DNA of 55,008 nt from a virus (Duplodnaviria; Heunggongvirae; Uroviricota; Caudoviricetes), in the IMG/VR virus record IMGVR_UViG_3300045988_134234, positions 1-55,008 of that record, one strand, 5' to 3'. The notes beneath the pieces were generated by a model, which made no database searches, was not told where the DNA came from, and saw only the letters and a program-made list of their open reading frames with translations. Position numbers and translations under genes: made by a program. Position 1 is the first letter of the stretch. Each line of letters begins with the position of its first letter. This document shows positions 4,380 to 45,462 of the stretch, piece by piece.

Positions 4380-4640
4380 TTGGCAGCCTCCTTTGACTAA
4401 GTTAAGGAGCTACCGCGTGAGGTTCCAATCTCAATGGCGGTAGCACTGACTGGGTTGGAACTACCGGCGTCAAAGGGAACCGGCCTGCCTTTCGGCAGCC
4501 CAGCCAGCACTACCATTGATCTCTGAGCTAAACGCTACGTATGGCTGTGCGATGGCGTGACACAAAAAAAGACGCTTTCGGCGTCTGTGTCGCCTTTGAC
4601 ATTATCCGGGGTTCCAATCCCGGCACCCGTTTTTCTAAGG
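4380..4640 (-). ncRNA. structured leader / candidate antisense-regulatory RNA (C4-like hypothesis)
   Basis: About 260 nt untranslated leader with repeated GATTGGAACC elements and a complementary GTTCCAACC element, multiple hairpins, and an anti-SD hairpin (CTCCTT...AAGGAG) sequestering the RBS of the 71-aa gene. Confidence 0.25.
4562..4586 (-). terminator. rho-independent terminator (minus strand)
   Basis: GACGC-cgaaa-GCGTC hairpin followed by T7 on minus strand. Confidence 0.55.
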
Positions 4641-4690
4641 TGCCGTAGAAATATACCTCACGATAATGCCAGGGCGCAACAGTCAGTATT

Positions 4691-22084: not shown

Positions 22085-22579
22085 TTAAAACTTTTCGTAC
22101 TGAAGCGGTGTACGCTTGATTTCAATGCGGTCTTCCGATGTGCTACCAAAGCCACCAGCACCTCGCTCTGTTTCATCGAGTTCATCAACTTCTACCAGCG
22201 ATACCGGTTCAACACGCTCAAAAATGCCTTGCATGACCGTCATTCCTGGCTTGAGGCAAACGCCTTCACCACCGGGATCTGTAATCAGTTTTGCTTTGAT
22301 TTCACCGCGATAATCGGAGTCGATAATTCCTACGCAGTTAGCCAGGCGCGTATGCTTTTTGCAGCCCAATCCGGAACGAGGATAAAGTTTCAGACACCAG
22401 CCAGGAGGGATCGCCATAGCGAGGCCGGTATGCACCCACCAGCTTGAGGAAATAGCGCCGTTGCTATTGATACCTGGCGTTATTTCAACAGCAATAAAAT
22501 CCATCGCCGCCGATCCGGCGGTGGCGTAAACGGGGAGTTTTGCCGCCGGATGAAGGCGTTTCACTTTCACGTTAATCAT
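22085..22579 (-). CDS. dut: dUTP diphosphatase (trimeric dUTPase)
   Basis: YATAGSAAMD, PRSGLG, GIIDSDYRGEI, RGAGGFGSTS motifs. Confidence 0.85.
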   Translation of the reverse strand: MINVKVKRLHPAAKLPVYATAGSAAMDFIAVEITPGINSNGAISSSWWVHTGLAMAIPPGWCLKLYPRSGLGCKKHTRLANCVGIIDSDYRGEIKAKLITDPGGEGVCLKPGMTVMQGIFERVEPVSLVEVDELDETERGAGGFGSTSEDRIEIKRTPLQYEKF

Positions 22580-23064
22580 TGCTTTTTAGCTCTCCGGGTA
22601 AATGTATAAATCCGGCGTTTGATATGCGGAGCGGTCGGGACGGAGACGCAGGTATTCTCGATAACACCTTGTTCCTCCAGCGATCGCACAGCACGCAAGA
22701 ACTGTGATGCATCGCCACCGCCAGACAGCCAAAATTTGCGGGCATAGACGCTGCCATTACGGATAATTTCTGCGATCACCCGCGCTTGCGTCTGGCTTTC
22801 TCGATAGCCAAAGAGTTCTCTTGCCTCTCCTTGTGGGATAGCCAACTGATAGCCTTTCCCGCTACGGTGACGGACAAAACCGTGAGCAATGAGGTTCTTC
22901 AGCTCATTTCGGGTGCGGATACACCCGTACTCAGGGAACTGTGTGTTGATATCACCAGGCTTATGCCATTCATCAGGACTATCAGCCAGGAGGGACAGAA
23001 GTTTCCCTGACAGCTCAGGATTAGTGGTTGGATAGCAGTTCAGGGATGGGTAGTAAGTTTTCAT
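22576..23064 (-). CDS. hypothetical protein (162 aa)
   Basis: ORF; start overlaps upstream stop. Confidence 0.45.
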   Translation of the reverse strand: MKTYYPSLNCYPTTNPELSGKLLSLLADSPDEWHKPGDINTQFPEYGCIRTRNELKNLIAHGFVRHRSGKGYQLAIPQGEARELFGYRESQTQARVIAEIIRNGSVYARKFWLSGGGDASQFLRAVRSLEEQGVIENTCVSVPTAPHIKRRIYTFTRRAKKQ

Positions 23065-23405
23065 TTGCGCCCCCTTGCCGGATAGCGCCCGGCATTTGCA
23101 TCAGGGGCAATGAAGCCGCTGGTGGGGCGAGTGAAAACATGGTTAATTTTCTCGGTCATAGCGCGATAATTTTCCTGATAGTGGGCCAGGAGTTTTTCAG
23201 CAGCAATGACGGTTACTTTCCGGACGTAGCGTTCAGCTTCCTCCAGATTTCGCCAGTTTTTTTCGAGGGTAAACACGGGAACGGCATCAAGTCCGGTCAT
23301 AACACCGAACACCACGACCGCCTGGTCGCGCTTAACGCCCGCAGTGAAGGTTATGGTGTAACCGTCAACAGTGAAGCGTTTTGATTCCGTAATACGATTG
23401 TGCAA
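23061..23405 (-). CDS. hypothetical protein (114 aa), first gene downstream of cre
   Basis: ORF; operator-like motif upstream. Confidence 0.45.
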   Translation of the reverse strand: MHNRITESKRFTVDGYTITFTAGVKRDQAVVVFGVMTGLDAVPVFTLEKNWRNLEEAERYVRKVTVIAAEKLLAHYQENYRAMTEKINHVFTRPTSGFIAPDANAGRYPARGRK

Positions 23406-23462
23406 AGTACCCTCCGCAATAGGCGAGGGTACTTTACATTAAAATGCACTGTCTAAAAAGGT

Positions 23463-23484
23463 TGTTAGAAAATTAATTTATGAG
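23463..23484. promoter_or_regulatory. operator-like motif TGTTAGAAAATTAATTTATGAG
   Basis: Overlaps 3' end of cre-like gene, upstream of 23405 operon. Confidence 0.4.
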
Positions 23485-24506
23485 TCCATCAGGCGACTAT
23501 TTGCACCAACGGATGCCCCGCTACGGCGCAAATATCGCATAAGTGTTTCGGGCTTTTTCCATGTGCCTTCCTGCATGATCTCGACCATTGACACCTGTTT
23601 CTCAGCCATATCAATTGCCGCACCAACACGCGCACTATGACCTGTCCACGTCCGGTATCTTCCTTTGTTCGGCGTTGCATCTCGTTTGTTCAGCAACCCC
23701 CAGGCATCGCTGAATATTTTCTCCATTGCAGGTGCAGTAAGGGGAGTTGTCGTGATTCTGGCCTTATTACTGCGGTGTATTGGCGGGAATAGCACCGCGT
23801 CCGGATGTTGACGAAGTCCGGACACCTCCAGCCAGTCGTTCAGTACGGCGGTAGTGCAACGAGAAAGCACCTTATCAAGTCCGGCGGCGGTCGTGATGGT
23901 CTTCGTGTGTGAAATATGCAGCGTTACAGTGTCACCTGTTTGGTCCAGATCTCCGACGCGGATGCGCGAGATTTCTGACATACGCATCAGGGTATTGTAT
24001 GCCACGAAGAGAAACGCCCGATTGCGCAGGTCCACCAGCCGCTCGGAACGGGACAGCAATACGTCGAGCAATTTCAGATCATCCCACCGCAACGGTATAG
24101 CCTGGCCTGTTCGCTCGCCTTTTTCCGTTGCCGCTTCGCGTCGGATGCGCCGCATGGCCAGAGACACACTTTTATCGTCCGACAGTGGCGGGAGGCCACA
24201 TTGCGAAAGCAGCATGTTAAGCATGGCATAGTGCTTATCAATGGTGGTCGAAGCCAGATCGGCCTCATGCAACTGGAGAAGATACTCGCGGGCCATTTCC
24301 GGCGTAATCGGGAACCAGGGGCGCTGGCGCGAATTACACCACCGCGCCCAGGAATGAAACACCAGACGGAGATCACGAAGTGTATTTGGGGCATAAGCTC
24401 CCTGGTCGTTCATGAACTGCATAAAGTTTTTTGCAGCTTCCTGGTATTCGGTGCCAATATCGCGCAGAAAACCACCAGAACCGCCGGAGATAACTAGTTC
24501 ACCCAT
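23478..24506 (-). CDS. cre: Cre-like tyrosine site-specific recombinase
   Basis: 342 aa; colinear with recalled P1 Cre (HSWARWC/RSWAAWC, KHYAMLNML, VSLAMRRIRRE, AYNTLMRMSEISRIRV, GHSARVGAAIDMA, W...Y near C-terminus). Confidence 0.85.
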   Translation of the reverse strand: MGELVISGGSGGFLRDIGTEYQEAAKNFMQFMNDQGAYAPNTLRDLRLVFHSWARWCNSRQRPWFPITPEMAREYLLQLHEADLASTTIDKHYAMLNMLLSQCGLPPLSDDKSVSLAMRRIRREAATEKGERTGQAIPLRWDDLKLLDVLLSRSERLVDLRNRAFLFVAYNTLMRMSEISRIRVGDLDQTGDTVTLHISHTKTITTAAGLDKVLSRCTTAVLNDWLEVSGLRQHPDAVLFPPIHRSNKARITTTPLTAPAMEKIFSDAWGLLNKRDATPNKGRYRTWTGHSARVGAAIDMAEKQVSMVEIMQEGTWKKPETLMRYLRRSGASVGANSRLMDS

Positions 24507-24657
24507 GAAACTATTAAACCTCTATATACAGATAACGCTACGTGAAAAATAGAAAACTGACAGGGTAGTTATAAGTTAATTTTCAAAATTCAAGCCTTTG
24601 ATTCGAGGCATGATTTTTCATCCTTGTCAATACTACCTGTTTACTGGAGATTATAGC

Positions 24658-24691
24658 CTAACTTTAAATAATGCCAATTATTTAAAGTTAG
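24658..24691. other. lox-like recombination site (13-bp inverted arms, 8-bp spacer)
   Basis: CTAACTTTAAATA-ATGCCAAT-TATTTAAAGTTAG; arms resemble loxP arm ATAACTTCGTATA; about 150 bp upstream of cre-like start. Confidence 0.6.
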
Positions 24692-24771
24692 AAATCGGGA
24701 CTTTTTTCCCAAAAAAAACACCGACCAGATCACTTCGCAAATCCGTCAGCCATGCGGTAGCCGTTCCTGGT

Positions 24772-24786
24772 TACATTTTCTAATAG
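24772..24786. promoter_or_regulatory. operator-like motif (ACATTTTCTAATAGG)
   Basis: Inverted relative to the 24860 copy, upstream of candidate repressor gene. Confidence 0.4.
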
Positions 24787-24859
24787 GAACAATCAAAAAA
24801 AAGCGGTTTTATCCTTTACTCACCTTGTTATTCAGCATAAATTTGTCACAGGACTTTTA

Positions 24860-24875
24860 TGTTAGAAAACTAAAT
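24860..24875. promoter_or_regulatory. operator-like motif TGTTAGAAAACTAAAT about 12 nt upstream of the 24888 ATG
   Basis: Motif immediately precedes RBS/start of the 345-aa gene. Confidence 0.45.
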
Positions 24876-24887
24876 CGAGTAGGAATA

Positions 24888-25925
24888 ATGAGTAAGAAGT
24901 CGATCGAGAATGAGTACAAACGGTTCCTGCAAACCGCTGAACGGTGGAAAGAGCTGGTGGTCGCAAACTCTGTTTTCCATGATACCAGTTATGTTGGCGA
25001 GGAATTTCGCCATGTTGCATTAACACATGATCCGGCTGTATTAGAAGAAGCTGAAAAATGCATAGCCGAATGGAAAGCCTTTGTTGATCTGTGTCGCAAG
25101 GATGATGACAAAGCCTCAAACATTGTTGAGTCGGTTTATTTACCGATCCCATTCATTGTTGAGGATACTAATCAGAGTACGCATATCGTTATGCAAAGCG
25201 CAACCACAACGAGAACATTTACGCGCGAAGACCTGCTGAAAAAATACGATAAAACTATAAAGAAAAGCATGAAAAACAGGATATTTTCACAGGTTGTCGG
25301 TGCGCTTGAAGAAGAACGCAGATTCTTCGCCGCTGAACGTGAGGGCGAGGTATACCGCGCAAGAAAAGAAGGTTATACCGATGTGGTGATTACCACCAAT
25401 ATCGAGGGCAACAATGGACTTTCACGCTTCAGAGTGGGTACGCACGGTGCGCTGATCTTTGCCAGAAAAGCAAACACAGAGATTCCCGTTGTTAACAACG
25501 TTGGTGAGCGCCGCACCCTTACCATTTACACTGGCATTAAACCGCTTCCGTGCGGACTTCTCGGCGAATTTGACCTTTATCGGGTTCGTGATCTGGAAAA
25601 GCAGCAGCCAAGCTATGTCGTGAAGTCATATATCCTGAGAAACATTGATATCCGCAATCAGAGTTTAAAAAACAAATCAGATAAAATGCTGGCCGAAGCC
25701 GATCCAGCCATACACCAGATCGTTAGCCGGAAAATTCAAGAGGCTAAAGATGCAATGGCAAGGCTGGATAAAATGGACCTGGAACTACTGGAAGTTATGA
25801 TTGCCTCCGGCGATGACCTGACAGGCATCCGCCTTACTGAAGCCAGGAAAAAATACGGTAAAAGCGTTGAAGAACGCTATGGGTACACATTCACACAAAC
25901 GATGTACGCGGCAAAACTCTGGTAA
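24888..25925 (+). CDS. hypothetical protein; candidate master repressor by position and operator context
   Basis: Internal ATG (Met22) of ORF 24825..25925 with AGGAA RBS; between lox/cre and terminase, convergent with pacB; no sequence-level family assignment possible. Confidence 0.35.
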   Translation: MSKKSIENEYKRFLQTAERWKELVVANSVFHDTSYVGEEFRHVALTHDPAVLEEAEKCIAEWKAFVDLCRKDDDKASNIVESVYLPIPFIVEDTNQSTHIVMQSATTTRTFTREDLLKKYDKTIKKSMKNRIFSQVVGALEEERRFFAAEREGEVYRARKEGYTDVVITTNIEGNNGLSRFRVGTHGALIFARKANTEIPVVNNVGERRTLTIYTGIKPLPCGLLGEFDLYRVRDLEKQQPSYVVKSYILRNIDIRNQSLKNKSDKMLAEADPAIHQIVSRKIQEAKDAMARLDKMDLELLEVMIASGDDLTGIRLTEARKKYGKSVEERYGYTFTQTMYAAKLW

Positions 25926-25942
25926 TCGCAAACCACCCACAA

Positions 25943-25964
25943 GCCCCGAATCGCCGGGGCTTTT
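25943..25964 (+). terminator. rho-independent terminator
   Basis: GCCCCG-aatcgc-CGGGGC followed by TTTT, directly after the 24888..25925 stop. Confidence 0.55.
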
Positions 25965-27471
25965 AAATGTCAATATCAGGAATATCCACTTCTGCCAACA
26001 CCTGATCGCGGAATGTTGCGAGTTCTGCGCCAATGTCTTCATTAGCAGGCACGTAATCCACCAGCATAGTGAAGCAGTAGGTATCCCATCTGTCCGGCGA
26101 CTTGATGTTTAACTTCTGCCGCATGTGCTCCTTGCGCATCATCGCTACCTTCCCTTCTTCGTTAAGCATATACGGGATTTTTGATGCCTGATCTGCGGTT
26201 TTGGGGTCACTATCGATACGCATACGCCCGGATTTAATGGCATCCCCTGCCATAATATTGGCGTAAGCACGCTGATTGACAAAGCGTTCTCTGTCTCTTA
26301 GCGCAAACATAGGCTTACCCCAACGGATGCGAACGGGATTAGCACCACGGCGGACAAGCTGCGCACACGTATCTGAACCAAAGCCATCAGCATCCACAGC
26401 AATGGTGATGTTCGGGTATTTATCAGGAGTGCATTCGTTATAGATAAAGTCGGCAAAAGCCAACGGGTCCATAGTGCCTGACATCTCCAGTATCTTAAAG
26501 TTCACAACGCGTCGTTTCTCACGATAACCGGATACTTTGCATATATTGAGCACCGATTTGTCGCGACCATTACCGACGTCAGCGGTCGCTACCCAGCCCC
26601 AATCTTTCTCCAGCAACACTTTACGCCGTGCGGCGCGGTCGCACTCATCACGACCAAGCAAATACCCGTTAATTGCACGCGGGAACTGGCCCAGCACCTT
26701 AACCATGTACTCCAGCGAATCCCTGCCGCCGTACTCCAGCAATTTCTCACGAATAAAGCTCGGTTCAACGAATGGTGATTCTTCAGAGTTAAGGACTATT
26801 GCCGTCCAGACACCTTCCGGATTGCCTTCTGCCTTTGCCCTTGAATGGTGAGATTCATAAAAGTAACCGCTTGGACGCGTAGGCTGGGAAAGCATGAGCA
26901 TACGGTTATCTTTCTGCGTTAACGCCCCCGTCATGACGTTAATCGCCTTATCGGATATGCCCGATGCTTCATCAAGGATTAGCAGTAAATGCTCCGCGTG
27001 CTCCCCCGCCAGTGCCTCTTCGTTACCGAGTCGATAACCTTTACAGAGCACTTCCCATATCCCTTTACGGGAACGCTCATAAAACATGGTGTCAGACAGG
27101 ACAAAATAGGTCTGTAACCAGCCGTGGCGCTTAACAGCATTCGCCCAAAACTGTTTCACGTATTTGAATACGCCTGTTTTTACCTGGCCTATTTTGTTCG
27201 CAACAATAATGACGCGGGCGTCGGGGAACAGGATCATAAAAATTAGTAGCAACATCGCGGTAAGGGACGACTTACCCGTTCCGTGTCCGGACGTAACGGT
27301 CGTCCTGCTCCCCGTCTCCTGCACTGACTGAATGATCTGCTGCTGCTGGTGGGAGGGGAACATCCCAAAAATATCGACAACCGCTTGGGTAAAGTTGTAT
27401 CGATACCTGATAACCATATCGCGCCAACGTGGATCACTGGTGACGCACTTAATCTTACGACCACCAGCCAT
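25963..27471 (-). CDS. pacB: terminase large subunit (PacB-like)
   Basis: Walker A VTSGHGTGKSS, Walker B LLLILDEAS; C-terminal nuclease-type region; 502 aa. Confidence 0.85.
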   Translation of the reverse strand: MAGGRKIKCVTSDPRWRDMVIRYRYNFTQAVVDIFGMFPSHQQQQIIQSVQETGSRTTVTSGHGTGKSSLTAMLLLIFMILFPDARVIIVANKIGQVKTGVFKYVKQFWANAVKRHGWLQTYFVLSDTMFYERSRKGIWEVLCKGYRLGNEEALAGEHAEHLLLILDEASGISDKAINVMTGALTQKDNRMLMLSQPTRPSGYFYESHHSRAKAEGNPEGVWTAIVLNSEESPFVEPSFIREKLLEYGGRDSLEYMVKVLGQFPRAINGYLLGRDECDRAARRKVLLEKDWGWVATADVGNGRDKSVLNICKVSGYREKRRVVNFKILEMSGTMDPLAFADFIYNECTPDKYPNITIAVDADGFGSDTCAQLVRRGANPVRIRWGKPMFALRDRERFVNQRAYANIMAGDAIKSGRMRIDSDPKTADQASKIPYMLNEEGKVAMMRKEHMRQKLNIKSPDRWDTYCFTMLVDYVPANEDIGAELATFRDQVLAEVDIPDIDI

Positions 27472-28835
27472 TAGTCATCCTCCGGCTGGTCTATCGCAAT
27501 CTCGTCATCCACAGCATCAAAACCGGTATCCCCCGCGTCATAATCACCGTAGATATCAGCCGTGGCGGAAGGGTCTATATTCAGGTCTTCATCATTGGCC
27601 TCAAATTCACCGGCTTTACGTTCTCCGTTCCGGTCGTAATCCCCCATCCCAAGCCTATCAACGATTTTCGCTACTTCAGCCCGGCGTTGTGCAAGCCATT
27701 GTGGGAGTCCAGCTTGTTGCTCGGCAAACTGCTTCGCCTCTTTATCCAGTTGCTCATCATCAACATCGTTAACGTCAGAAACCGGAGGCTCCAGAAGTGA
27801 GATCGCTTTTGCCGCTCGTGCCGCCAGGATAGCCGGGACACTGACGCCCTGCCGCTCGATATATTCAGCAACACCTATATCATCCAGCTCCTCGCGCTCA
27901 CGCATACGTATAGCGGCGGCGATAACTCTGGCGGCGCGTGCGTCAGCGCCAATGCGATACTCAATCTCCTTGCCACGCTGCTCGGCTTGTAGGCGGGCAA
28001 TCGCCAGTTTTTCTCTGGCCTCAGCCTCCCTGAATGCCTGCTGACGCGCGCCCTGCGCAAGTTTTTCATCCCCCTGGCGTAGCTTCTGCTCGTTCTGATA
28101 GATGGCTGCCAGCCTGGTGATAAAGTCATTCATGTAGTAGGCCGCATCGCTGATCAGTCCGAGAAGACGCTGCCCTGGGTGCATCCCCTCTGGCTGTGTA
28201 TCACCGAGGGCGTCAATCTCTTCCTGTAGTCGCTCCGCTTCCTGGTCAACGATAGCCTGATACTGAATTGCTCGTTCCTGCGCCATCTGTATCGCAAGTC
28301 GTAAATGTTCAGTCGCGCCGTTCTTCATCATCTCACGGGCGACGTTGGTGGCTGGCAAAGTGGCGCTTTGAGCTGATGAATCAGGGATCATTTGCAATGA
28401 TCCCTTGTTTCGTTGGGCTTTTTCGCTGCTTTTAGGGATCATTTCTCCAATTTCATCACAAAATGATCCCTTCACATCCTTGTGTATCTTGCTGTTATTG
28501 CTTGACTTTTCTTTGTGATCCGCATTTTGTTTTTGCGGCATGGCGCGGAACCGTCCACCAGCTAACGATTTGTCAGTTTTTGTAAATTCTGTGCTTTTAT
28601 CAGCCTTTTTTTGCTCTTTTTTTGAGCCGGTGGCGCAGCTTTTTGCGCGCTGTTTTGTACTTTTCCCGGCAGCCTTAGCTTTCGCCTTAACCTCATTTTT
28701 TTTCATATTGAGATGCTTTCTGGCGGTGTTAAAGCTGAGGTCATGCTGCTCGCAATATTCTTTTATGGTGATCCCGGTTTCTTCTCTTAACTCCAGGAAC
28801 TTAGCTCGATGCGCTTCCCAGTTAATTAACGTCAT
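27471..28835 (-). CDS. pacA: terminase small subunit (PacA-like) containing pac-like GATC cluster
   Basis: N-terminal HTH-like (ITIKEYCEQHDLSFNTARKHL), Lys-rich region, acidic C-terminus; overlaps pacB start. Confidence 0.6.
   Translation of the reverse strand: MTLINWEAHRAKFLELREETGITIKEYCEQHDLSFNTARKHLNMKKNEVKAKAKAAGKSTKQRAKSCATGSKKEQKKADKSTEFTKTDKSLAGGRFRAMPQKQNADHKEKSSNNSKIHKDVKGSFCDEIGEMIPKSSEKAQRNKGSLQMIPDSSAQSATLPATNVAREMMKNGATEHLRLAIQMAQERAIQYQAIVDQEAERLQEEIDALGDTQPEGMHPGQRLLGLISDAAYYMNDFITRLAAIYQNEQKLRQGDEKLAQGARQQAFREAEAREKLAIARLQAEQRGKEIEYRIGADARAARVIAAAIRMREREELDDIGVAEYIERQGVSVPAILAARAAKAISLLEPPVSDVNDVDDEQLDKEAKQFAEQQAGLPQWLAQRRAEVAKIVDRLGMGDYDRNGERKAGEFEANDEDLNIDPSATADIYGDYDAGDTGFDAVDDEIAIDQPEDD
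28383..28520. promoter_or_regulatory. pac-like cluster of five GATC-containing heptamers (GGGATCA/TGATCCC)
   Basis: GATC at about 28386, 28399, 28437, 28465, 28516 arranged as inverted pairs within pacA codons about 105-150. Confidence 0.5.
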
Positions 28836-29224
28836 AGGGAAGCCTCACGTTTTTTCACAGCGGCGTTCCATAGCTGGTTAGTCATCGCCACCAACTGACG
28901 CTGCTCCTTTCGTAATTGAGCTTCTATCTTTCGGTTGGTGTTTTTCACCAACAGCCGACCGAATTCAGGAGTGCGCCCGCGCACCTTGAACTGGTATCCA
29001 TTCAGGCCATGTAACCAATATTTCCGGGGGTATACGCGGTCGTCTATTTCGCAAATGGCACGACTGGAACGAACAAAAAAACGTATGATGTTATTTACGT
29101 TTACGCGCGACACATGAAGGTGAGGATATTGTGCTTTTGCACGGCTGGTGATTTCGGTGACCGTCAGATAGCAGTCAGCCCTGATCATGATATCCGCTAT
29201 TTCGGCGCTACTGATTTGCTCCAT
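28832..29224 (-). CDS. hypothetical protein immediately upstream of pacA (Lpa-like position)
   Basis: 130 aa; operator palindrome directly upstream. Confidence 0.35.
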   Translation of the reverse strand: MEQISSAEIADIMIRADCYLTVTEITSRAKAQYPHLHVSRVNVNNIIRFFVRSSRAICEIDDRVYPRKYWLHGLNGYQFKVRGRTPEFGRLLVKNTNRKIEAQLRKEQRQLVAMTNQLWNAAVKKREASL

Positions 29225-30741: not shown

Positions 30742-30817
30742 TGGTGGCCCCTACCGGACTTGAACCGGTGACCGTGCGATTATGAGTCGCCCGCTCTAAC
30801 CACTGAGCTAAGGGGCC
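30742..30817 (-). tRNA. tRNA anticodon CAU (Met or Ile2 via lysidine)
   Basis: RC reads GGCCCCTTAGCTCAGTGGTTAGAGC...CTCATAA...GGTTCAAGTCC...GGGGCCACCA; resembles recalled E. coli ileX/ileY-type tRNA. Confidence 0.8.
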
Positions 30818-30826
30818 AGATTACTG

Positions 30827-30955
30827 TTAATTACGCTTACGCTTTTTGCCAGAACCGCGTAAGGCTTTTGCCGCTTGCTCTACCCCGTATGCAACCACCA
30901 GCAGAAACAATAATGTCCACTCCGGGTTTTTATCGGCAAACGCCCAAAAATCCAT
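30827..30955 (-). CDS. possible small membrane peptide (~42 aa)
   Basis: MDFWAFADKNPEWTLLFLLVVAYG...; AGGTGG RBS-like upstream; approximate coordinates. Confidence 0.3.
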   Translation of the reverse strand: MDFWAFADKNPEWTLLFLLVVAYGVEQAAKALRGSGKKRKRN

Positions 30956-31133
30956 CACTTGCAGCCACCTTTTAAGACAAAACGCCATTGCTGTTAGGTT
31001 GCGGTGCCGGGTGCCTCCCGGTGACGTTAACCAGTTAACAATTAACGCCGGATCACTTATGGATTCTCGTTACGCCAGTAAAAAGACCACCTTTACTGTT
31101 TTAACTGTTCCGCGTGCGCTTAGCCGCATTCAC

Positions 31134-31246
31134 CGCAATGGTAAGAGCATTTGGCTGACTGGGCGGCGATGACGCCTGTACGCATTTGGTGATCCGGTTC
31201 TGCTTCCGGCATTCGCTTAATTAGCCAAATACTCTTAACGTTGCGA
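31134..31246. repeat. long-hairpin family unit B (abuts 3' end of tRNA-Ser)
   Basis: CGCAATGGTAAGAGCATTT ... AAATACTCTTAACGTTGCG. Confidence 0.45.
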
Positions 31247-31333
31247 TGGCGGAGAGTAATGGAATCGAACCATCATCGCTTGCGCGACGGGACGGTTTTC
31301 AAGACCGCTTGAGCACCATGCTCCCTACTCTCC
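31247..31333 (-). tRNA. tRNA-Ser (anticodon UGA), class II with long variable arm
   Basis: RC reads GGAGAGT...GCGGTCTTGAAAACCGT (anticodon TGA)...long variable arm...GGTTCGATTCC...ACTCTCCGCCA. Confidence 0.65.
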
Positions 31334-31483
31334 AGTGATTGTGGTGGTCGGTACTGATCTCCGACTGCGCCTCTTTTTTTCATAGCGCATAAGGCCGGTC
31401 AGTGCGCTTGATGACTGAGGCATCGATATTTACTACGCCGCCTCGTTGCCATAGGGCGGACTTGCGCGCCAGCAACGCGCATT

Positions 31484-31573
31484 CACCACAACGGAAAGAG
31501 CATTTATGGCTCGCATCGCGGGAAAAAGCCCACGGTAGAGAGTCGAACTCTACAAATGCTCTTACCTGTTGTG
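31484..31573. repeat. long-hairpin family unit C with internal T-loop-like hairpin
   Basis: CACCACAACGGAAAGAGCATTT ... AAATGCTCTTACCTGTTGTG; internal GTAGAG-TTCGACT-CTCTAC on minus strand. Confidence 0.45.
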
Positions 31574-31698
31574 TTGTGATGACCGGTGCTGATCTCCGGC
31601 TTGCGGTAATTTCAGACTCTCACGGGCGTTTAATTGCCCCGCCGAACAGCTCTTTTCCGCAATAGCTGCAATGTCTTTCGCGCATCAGCCTGCGCATT

Positions 31699-31788
31699 CA
31701 TCACAACGGTAAGGGTACTTCGTAGGGATTCGAACCCTCTGCCAAGCTCGGCGATCTCCGACGTCGCAAAATACCCTTACCTGTTGTG
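31699..31788. repeat. long-hairpin family unit D with internal T-arm-like GGGTTCGAATCCC (abuts tRNA-Thr)
   Basis: CATCACAACGGTAAGGGTA ... TACCCTTACCTGTTGTG; tRNA-like but lacks D-arm and CCA. Confidence 0.45.
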
Positions 31789-31789
31789 C

Positions 31790-31865
31790 TGGTGCCGATT
31801 AACGGACTCGAACCGCTGACATCCTGCTTACAAGGCAGGCGCTCTACCAACTGAGCTAAACCGGC
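31790..31865 (-). tRNA. tRNA-Thr (anticodon UGU)
   Basis: RC reads GCCGGTTTAGCTCAGTTGGTAGAGC GCCTGCCTTGTAAGCAGG...GGTTCGAGTCC...AATCGGCACCA. Confidence 0.8.
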
Positions 31866-31867
31866 AT

Positions 31868-31943
31868 TGGCGATGGTGGATGGATTTGAACCATCGACCC
31901 GTTGATTAACAGTCAACCGCTCTAACCGCTGAGCTACACCATC
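31868..31943 (-). tRNA. tRNA-Asn (anticodon GUU)
   Basis: RC reads GATGGTGTAGCTCAGCGGTTAGAGC GGTTGACTGTTAATCAACG...GGTTCAAATCC...CACCATCGCCA. Confidence 0.8.
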
Positions 31944-45159: not shown

Positions 45160-45360
45160 CAACCTGCGACCCGCTGTCAAACAGGTGGCAGGACGTGACA
45201 GGGTTGACAGACTGGCACTTACGAAACCAGCAGGCCGAAGCCTCCCCATCACGCCCCACCATAATTCGGGCGTAACGTGGTTTTACGGACACAAAAATAC
45301 CGCAATATCGGAAATGTGCGGTTGTCCGCGTAAGTATTCAGGCTGTCAAACCTGGTCGCA
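45160..45360. repeat. TGTCAAAC / GTTGACAG short repeats in leader region
   Basis: CGCTGTCAAACAGG, GGGTTGACAGACTGG, GGCTGTCAAACCTGG: two direct copies plus one complementary copy. Confidence 0.4.
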
Positions 45361-45462
45361 GAATTTGCTACGACGGCATGAATATAAGCCTGAACATTAG
45401 AAAGATCAACAGAATTTTTATCAAATGCTGTTTTTTAGTGACAATGTAAATCATACATTCTT

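Follow-up and report, generated by a model that had tools for sequence, protein, structure and literature searches.

The window analysed here, the whole 55,008-nt stretch of viral DNA, carries a perfect 34-bp palindrome at 24658-24691 close to a gene for a Cre-type tyrosine recombinase, and the question that this locus raises is whether the two form a working pair of enzyme and crossover site and, if so, of which system. The initial annotation took them for a candidate heterospecific pair, in which a lox-like site is served by a Cre homologue of its own. Our reading, to which we give a probability of about 95%, is that the palindrome and the adjoining gene are the Dre recombinase and its rox site in a D6-like phage-plasmid of Escherichia. 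Dre/rox is a system already known, of which the pair in the window is a member and not a new type, and all of the defining features of Dre/rox that can be tested in sequence were found here.

Inspection of the sequence and a repeat finder both bore out the 34-bp element with perfect 13-bp arms that had been reported initially. Positions 24658-24691 read CTAACTTTAAATAATGCCAATTATTTAAAGTTAG, a perfect inverted repeat, and the 13-nt arms CTAACTTTAAATA and TATTTAAAGTTAG are perfectly complementary. The repeat finder returned 15-nt arms with 100% complementarity (24658-24672 and 24677-24691), separated by a 4-nt centre, GCCA. Because the symmetry extends inward past the 13-nt arms, the 8-bp spacer ATGCCAAT is asymmetric in its central 4 bp only; the asymmetric 8-bp spacer of the initial annotation is a usable description, and rox spacer positions are likewise numbered 1 to 8 in published work, by analogy with loxP, but its asymmetry is confined to those 4 bp. 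Published accounts describe rox as 14-bp repeats with a 4-bp asymmetric spacer, and spacer mutagenesis has shown that positions 2 and 7 of the 8 bp govern compatibility (PMC4777119). Crossover is presumed to take place within these 8 bp, at 24671-24678. The parts of the site and the gene beside it are as follows.

24659-24690, no strand: rox site, 32 bp, TAACTTTAAATAAT-GCCA-ATTATTTAAAGTTA; with one more base on each side it makes up the palindrome 24658-24691
24659-24672, no strand: rox arm on the dre side, 14 nt, perfect inverted repeat; presumed, by analogy with Cre-loxP structures and from the published rox description, to bind one Dre monomer
24673-24676, plus strand: asymmetric core GCCA, which sets the orientation of the site
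24677-24690, no strand: rox arm on the c1 side, 14 nt, perfect inverted repeat
23478-24506, minus strand: dre orthologue, Cre-type tyrosine recombinase of 342 aa, 321 of 342 residues identical to D6 Dre

An AT-rich element that is able to form a hairpin could in principle be a palindrome arisen by chance or the stem of a transcription terminator. Chance is not expected to yield a perfect 15+15 inverted repeat in 55 kb (4^-15 per position), and a terminator scan at the site called no G+C-rich stem plus T-run. The element is, moreover, identical to a known recombination site, as set out below, and its distance from the gene is constant in all relatives. On the terminator scan and the identity with rox, both readings were ruled out, and we give them no weight. 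A 61-aa ORF (24598-24783, plus strand) spans the site and has no annotated counterpart in D6 or in the RefSeq plasmid; it was rejected as a gene and regarded as a mechanical ORF.

The window held no second copy of the 34-bp element at up to 3 mismatches and no extra half-site at up to 2 mismatches over its 55 kb. The site being single, its recombination partner would be a sister copy of the same site, in a dimer or through terminal redundancy, rather than a second locus.

The identity of the pair was resolved by comparison with phage D6. Megablast of 23300-25100 against phage records gave a sole match, Escherichia phage D6, at ~86-87% identity, and the D6 features under this match were 'dre: tyrosine recombinase', 'c1' and 'region of crossover (rox) site for Dre recombinase'. 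Record AY753669, which covers immC of D6, marks rox as a misc_recomb feature of 32 bp; the sequence of this feature, TAACTTTAAATAATGCCAATTATTTAAAGTTA, equals window 24659-24690 base for base, and the flanks diverge. The base outside the c1-side arm is G in the window and T in D6, a difference that extends the palindrome to 34 bp in the window. Wild-type roxP, as published for use in genome engineering, is the same 32-mer (PMC4777119), and those 32 bp are sufficient as a crossover site for Dre in both bacteria and mammalian cells (PMC4777119, PMC4957104). Experiments have shown that Dre acts on rox but leaves loxP alone and that rox is no substrate for Cre (Sauer and McDermott 2004, as summarised in PMC4777119; PMC4957104).

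The surroundings of the site also correspond to D6. The order dut-orf3-orf2-dre-rox-c1-pacB-pacA-lpa is that of the D6 immC region (AY753669), with the following neighbours (percentages are identities to the D6 proteins).

22085-23405, minus strand: dut (68%), orf3 (71%) and orf2 (84%), downstream of dre as in D6
24888-25925, plus strand: c1 repressor homologue of 345 aa, divergent from dre; 81% to D6 C1, at the same position in AY753669
25963-27471, minus strand: pacB, packaging gene (92%)
27471-28835, minus strand: pacA, packaging gene (74%)
28835-29224, minus strand: lpa, late-promoter activator (82%)

The site thus lies between dre and c1 and beside pacB-pacA-lpa, the setting of a P1/D6-type plasmid prophage, and Dre, at 94%, is the best conserved protein of the dut-to-lpa block. 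Compared with Dre/rox of D6 (AY753669, MF356679), the window has an identical 32-bp site, a recombinase of equal length that aligns without gaps, the same 152 bp between the 32-bp rox and the start codon, and the same neighbouring genes. It differs in 21 substitutions of the recombinase, none of which is catalytic or at a checked specificity position, and in its surroundings, where the DNA is only ~86-87% identical and the neighbouring proteins range from 68 to 92%. The closest DNA (98-99.6%) was found in circular ~90 kb plasmids of E. coli and E. marmotae in RefSeq. The window lineage is therefore placed as a sister lineage of the D6-like plasmids and is not D6 itself.

The heterospecific pairing proposed at the outset was thus the right interpretation, the site being D6 rox and the protein 94% identical to Dre, and the database search for the same arms that had been suggested as a check recovered an identical rox in D6 and in related loci. 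The word "candidate", on the other hand, understates what is known, since the pair has already been named, characterised and widely used. Dre/rox of phage D6 was reportedly published by Sauer and McDermott in 2004 and has been in wide use since, as a standard tool orthogonal to Cre/loxP. The locus accordingly has little value as a discovery. What has been gained is that a heterospecific lox-type pair was correctly recognised from raw sequence, that the window is now placed as a D6-like phage-plasmid, and that it offers a natural Dre variant, 21 substitutions from the tool enzyme, paired with an unchanged rox.

The recombinase itself was assigned from several lines of comparison. Its ORF is real, and a gap of 151 bp was measured between its ATG and the 34-bp element, in agreement with the distance of about 150 bp given before. 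The protein matched D6 Dre over its full length (94%) and P1 Cre at 41% identity. Cre structures in the PDB were the best solved-structure relatives (E = 7e-72), and the Pfam domains PF00589 (Phage_integrase; E = 1e-16, above the curated cut-off) and PF02899 (N-terminal SAM-like domain) were identified. The catalytic domain has the R..K..H-x-x-R..W/H..Y signature of the tyrosine recombinase superfamily. In a three-way alignment, all seven of the Cre residues R173, E176, K201, H289, R292, W315 and Y324 were kept, as R175, E178, K202, H290, R293, W316 and Y325 in the window protein, a numbering that agrees with that of Dre in PMC4777119. The Cre active-site context named in the initial annotation is present, with GHSARVGAA at residues 289-297 and with W316 and Y325 aligned to their Cre counterparts.

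The 21 differences from Dre fall at positions 2, 5, 9, 16, 19, 26, 30, 58, 59, 62, 63, 68, 76, 81, 102, 217, 227, 233, 270, 329 and 331. All 21 of the DNA-contact and specificity positions that were checked, a set taken partly from PMC4957104 and partly from the known contacts in Cre-loxP structures, hold the same residue as in Dre. Among them are the equivalents of Cre K43, R259 and G263, residues tied to the choice between loxP and rox/pox (PMC4957104), which are R44, P259 and K263 in both the window protein and Dre. The substitutions include R217C and V270G, the latter just beyond the helix that bears the specificity residues equivalent to Cre 259-266. From these comparisons we infer that the 94%-identical variant would be active on rox. 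A protein 100% identical to that of the window, WP_072770514.1 on NZ_CP104667.1, is annotated only as 'tyrosine-type recombinase/integrase'.

Cre/loxP of P1 is the obvious system against which to set the pair. The two share enzyme family and fold, with the catalytic R-E-K-H-R-W-Y set kept at 41% identity; a palindrome of the 34-bp class upstream of the recombinase, in an immC-type region beside c1 and pacAB; and presumed roles in the life cycle of a plasmid prophage. They differ in the site, where the arm departs from that of loxP (ATAACTTCGTATA-GCATACAT-TATACGAAGTTAT) at 4 of 13 positions, the two cores are unlike, and the symmetry is 14+4+14 in the window against 13+8+13 in loxP, and in experiments they are heterospecific (PMC4777119). 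Two details of the initial comparison with loxP were corrected. In place of the "about 5 of 13" arm differences, 4 were counted (positions 1, 8, 9 and 10), of which position 1 lies outside the 32-bp rox. The spacer, called unrelated, has ATG as its first three bases, in common with the loxP spacer read in one orientation, as has also been noted in PMC4777119. Two other assignments were ruled out: the site is not loxP, its arm being different at 4 of 13 positions and its core asymmetric over only 4 bp, and the protein is not Cre or a close orthologue, since 41% identity marks it as a homologue and not an orthologue of the same specificity.

Other known systems, namely Panto/pox (Pantoea sp. aB), Vika/vox, VCre/VloxP and Nigri/nox, likewise combine a Cre-type recombinase with a lox-like palindrome near its gene. 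Panto, 52% identical to Dre, and Dre recombine each other's sites (PMC4957104). Relatives from Pantoea, Rahnella and Mixta have 42-48% identity to the window protein and other arms and cores. In the wider set of such loci (L039-L112; Pantoea, Rahnella, Mixta, Erwinia, Chimaeribacter and others), Cre/Dre relatives of 42-48% identity were accompanied by lox-type palindromes, mostly ~150-300 bp upstream of the gene and with varied cores. Their arms, among them TAACTTTATATAA, TAACTTCATATAA, TAACTTCGTATAA (loxP-arm-like), TGGCTTCGTATAA, TAACATTATATAA and TAACTTTACATAA, formed a graded continuum between those of loxP and rox, and many of the palindromes were followed by a GGATCC...GATCC motif. Together with the natural Dre variant of the window, these graded rox, pox and lox-like sites could be of use in studies of recombinase specificity.

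Conservation of the site was examined across 34 IMG/VR loci with recombinase relatives of 55-100% identity, the upstream region included. A rox-type site was found in these loci at a fixed 151-153 bp from the start codon, and the 152-bp spacing of the window (32-bp rox to ATG) recurred exactly in D6 and at least 30 related loci. The exact rox was present in 21 of the 34 loci, a one-base change in the c1-side arm was seen in 10 (TAACTTTAGATAAT, loci oriented with dre on the plus strand), and a few had changes in the core. Loci L004 and L005, in which the protein is 100% identical, and the loci at ~94%, the level of D6 Dre, all paired with exact rox. Over 36 aligned dre-c1 upstream regions, rox was the most conserved stretch, with a column identity of 0.95-0.98 compared with 0.58-0.70 on the c1 side. 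This is the pattern expected for a selected site with unchanged specificity.

Natural variants of rox were observed ~150 bp upstream of the recombinase in the D6-like contigs L008, L011, L015, L020, L022, L026-L028, L031-L033 and L035. The core variants comprised CCCC for GCCA in L020, a site with 3 mismatches overall in L032, and GCTA in L035, where the protein is 69% identical; such core-variant sites would be expected to be incompatible with canonical rox. In L037 and L038, a recombinase that shares 55-56% identity with the window protein is paired with the site ATAACTTTATATAATGTCAGTTATATAAAGTTAT at positions 1317-1350. Both arms of this site have the identical A-to-T change relative to rox, so that enzyme and site may have changed together in these two loci.

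That the protein departs from the characterised Dre at 21 positions could also mean that the recombinase of the window lineage has drifted to another specificity or become inactive, leaving rox as a relic. We judge this very unlikely. Rox is kept at 100% while the flanks diverge, the catalytic and specificity residues are unchanged from Dre, and the ORF is intact. Four IMG/VR loci moreover encode proteins that are 99-100% identical, and so do independent plasmids whose hosts and countries of origin differ, a pattern expected under purifying selection.

The mechanism of strand exchange in the tyrosine recombinase family is established. For the Dre/rox pair of the window, two Dre monomers would bind the two 14-bp rox arms, and two rox sites occupied in this way would synapse as a tetramer. 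Y325 would then cleave and exchange the first pair of strands, giving a Holliday junction that would be resolved by a second pair of cleavages within the central ATGCCAAT, with the asymmetric GCCA core setting the direction of the reaction. No accessory protein, of host or phage, would be needed. These steps and the independence from cofactors follow from published work on Dre (PMC4777119, PMC4957104) and from the homology with Cre. By analogy, the module would most likely resolve dimers of the low-copy plasmid prophage, allowing the copies to be partitioned, and would most likely, like Cre/loxP in P1, circularise the terminally redundant DNA of an infecting phage. D6-like plasmid prophages have been described, and multimer resolution has been assigned to their recombinase and site (PMC6799933).

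A further feature of the locus overlaps rox itself.

24650-24677, minus strand: promoter-like element pointing toward dre, TTGGCA-16-TATAAT, 11 of 12 positions of the sigma-70 consensus

The -35 hexamer TTGGCA (24677-24672) is made up of the rox core and a single flanking base at either end, the 16-nt promoter spacer corresponds to the rox arm on the dre side, and the -10 hexamer TATAAT (24655-24650) lies 2 bp past the 34-bp palindrome and 3 bp past the 32-bp rox. A promoter scan of both strands of the 55-kb window returned this as the sole match of at least 11/12, with five others reaching 10/12. The match was kept in D6 and in D6-like loci, including L035 (TTAGCA-16-TATAAT), in which the protein is 69% identical and the flanks differ; L037/L038 and the Pantoea and Rahnella relatives lacked it. 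In P1, cra and three annotated cre promoters lie downstream of lox, and none of these overlaps lox; no promoter overlapping loxP is annotated there, and none was seen on reading the sequence, in contrast to the promoter-like overlap of the window. Neither of the two D6 records annotates a promoter overlapping rox, and no report of promoter activity in rox was found in the literature searched, a body that lies apart from the original description of 2004.

A tentative reading of this arrangement, about which we are more doubtful than confident, is that rox doubles as the core of the dre promoter in D6-type elements and that Dre bound at rox shuts off its own transcription. Provided that the promoter works, its occlusion by Dre at rox would be a form of negative autoregulation. 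Were this true, the supply of recombinase would be tied to the occupancy of the site, an arrangement that is not annotated for P1 cre/loxP and that would be a small addition to Dre/rox biology. As a practical caveat, a rox placed upstream of a bacterial gene might then carry -35 promoter activity.

The near-consensus match to sigma-70, the only one of 11/12 in the window, overlaps the site, points at dre and is conserved across the D6 clade, and the palindrome could on these grounds be seen as mainly a means of transcriptional control, a dre promoter or operator whose resemblance to lox is incidental. Yet the identical 32 bp have been shown to suffice as a crossover site for Dre, recombination and regulation are not mutually exclusive, and distant relatives keep a lox-type palindrome without the promoter match, which indicates that recombination is the ancestral, shared role. 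A mainly regulatory palindrome is thus extremely improbable, and rox remains, in our reading, the crossover site of Dre, whatever it may add as a promoter.

With respect to distribution, matches to dre plus rox were present in 155 of 5,426 complete E. coli genomes, and 153 of the 158 matched places were on plasmids; the 60-80% identity band among the E. coli matches probably includes Cre-type genes. The five matches on chromosomes may stem from integration of the element, from more distant Cre-type genes or from errors of assembly.

Divergence between the window and AY753669 was uneven along 22085-28835, with Dre (94%) and PacB (92%) far above PacA (74%), orf3 (71%) and Dut (68%), and ~100 bp of the stretch from rox to c1 were essentially unalignable between the window and D6. 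This unevenness and the unalignable DNA suggest that mosaic exchange took place around a conserved recombinase and site.

The pacA gene (27471-28835) lacked a P1-type cluster of TGATCA/G hexamers, with one hexamer only (28151), and no enrichment was found window-wide; the pac site of this lineage is located elsewhere or is built unlike that of P1. Four tRNA genes, for Met(cat), Ser(tga), Thr(tgt) and Asn(gtt), are clustered at 30742-31943 on the minus strand. RNA features were located at 4433-4520, 4565-4643, 45181-45266 and 45335-45387, all on the minus strand. They comprise two C4 antisense RNA genes, separate from each other, together with an isrK-like RNA and a single a1/b1 C4 target element, and they suggest that one element carries two antisense immunity modules of the P1 immI type.
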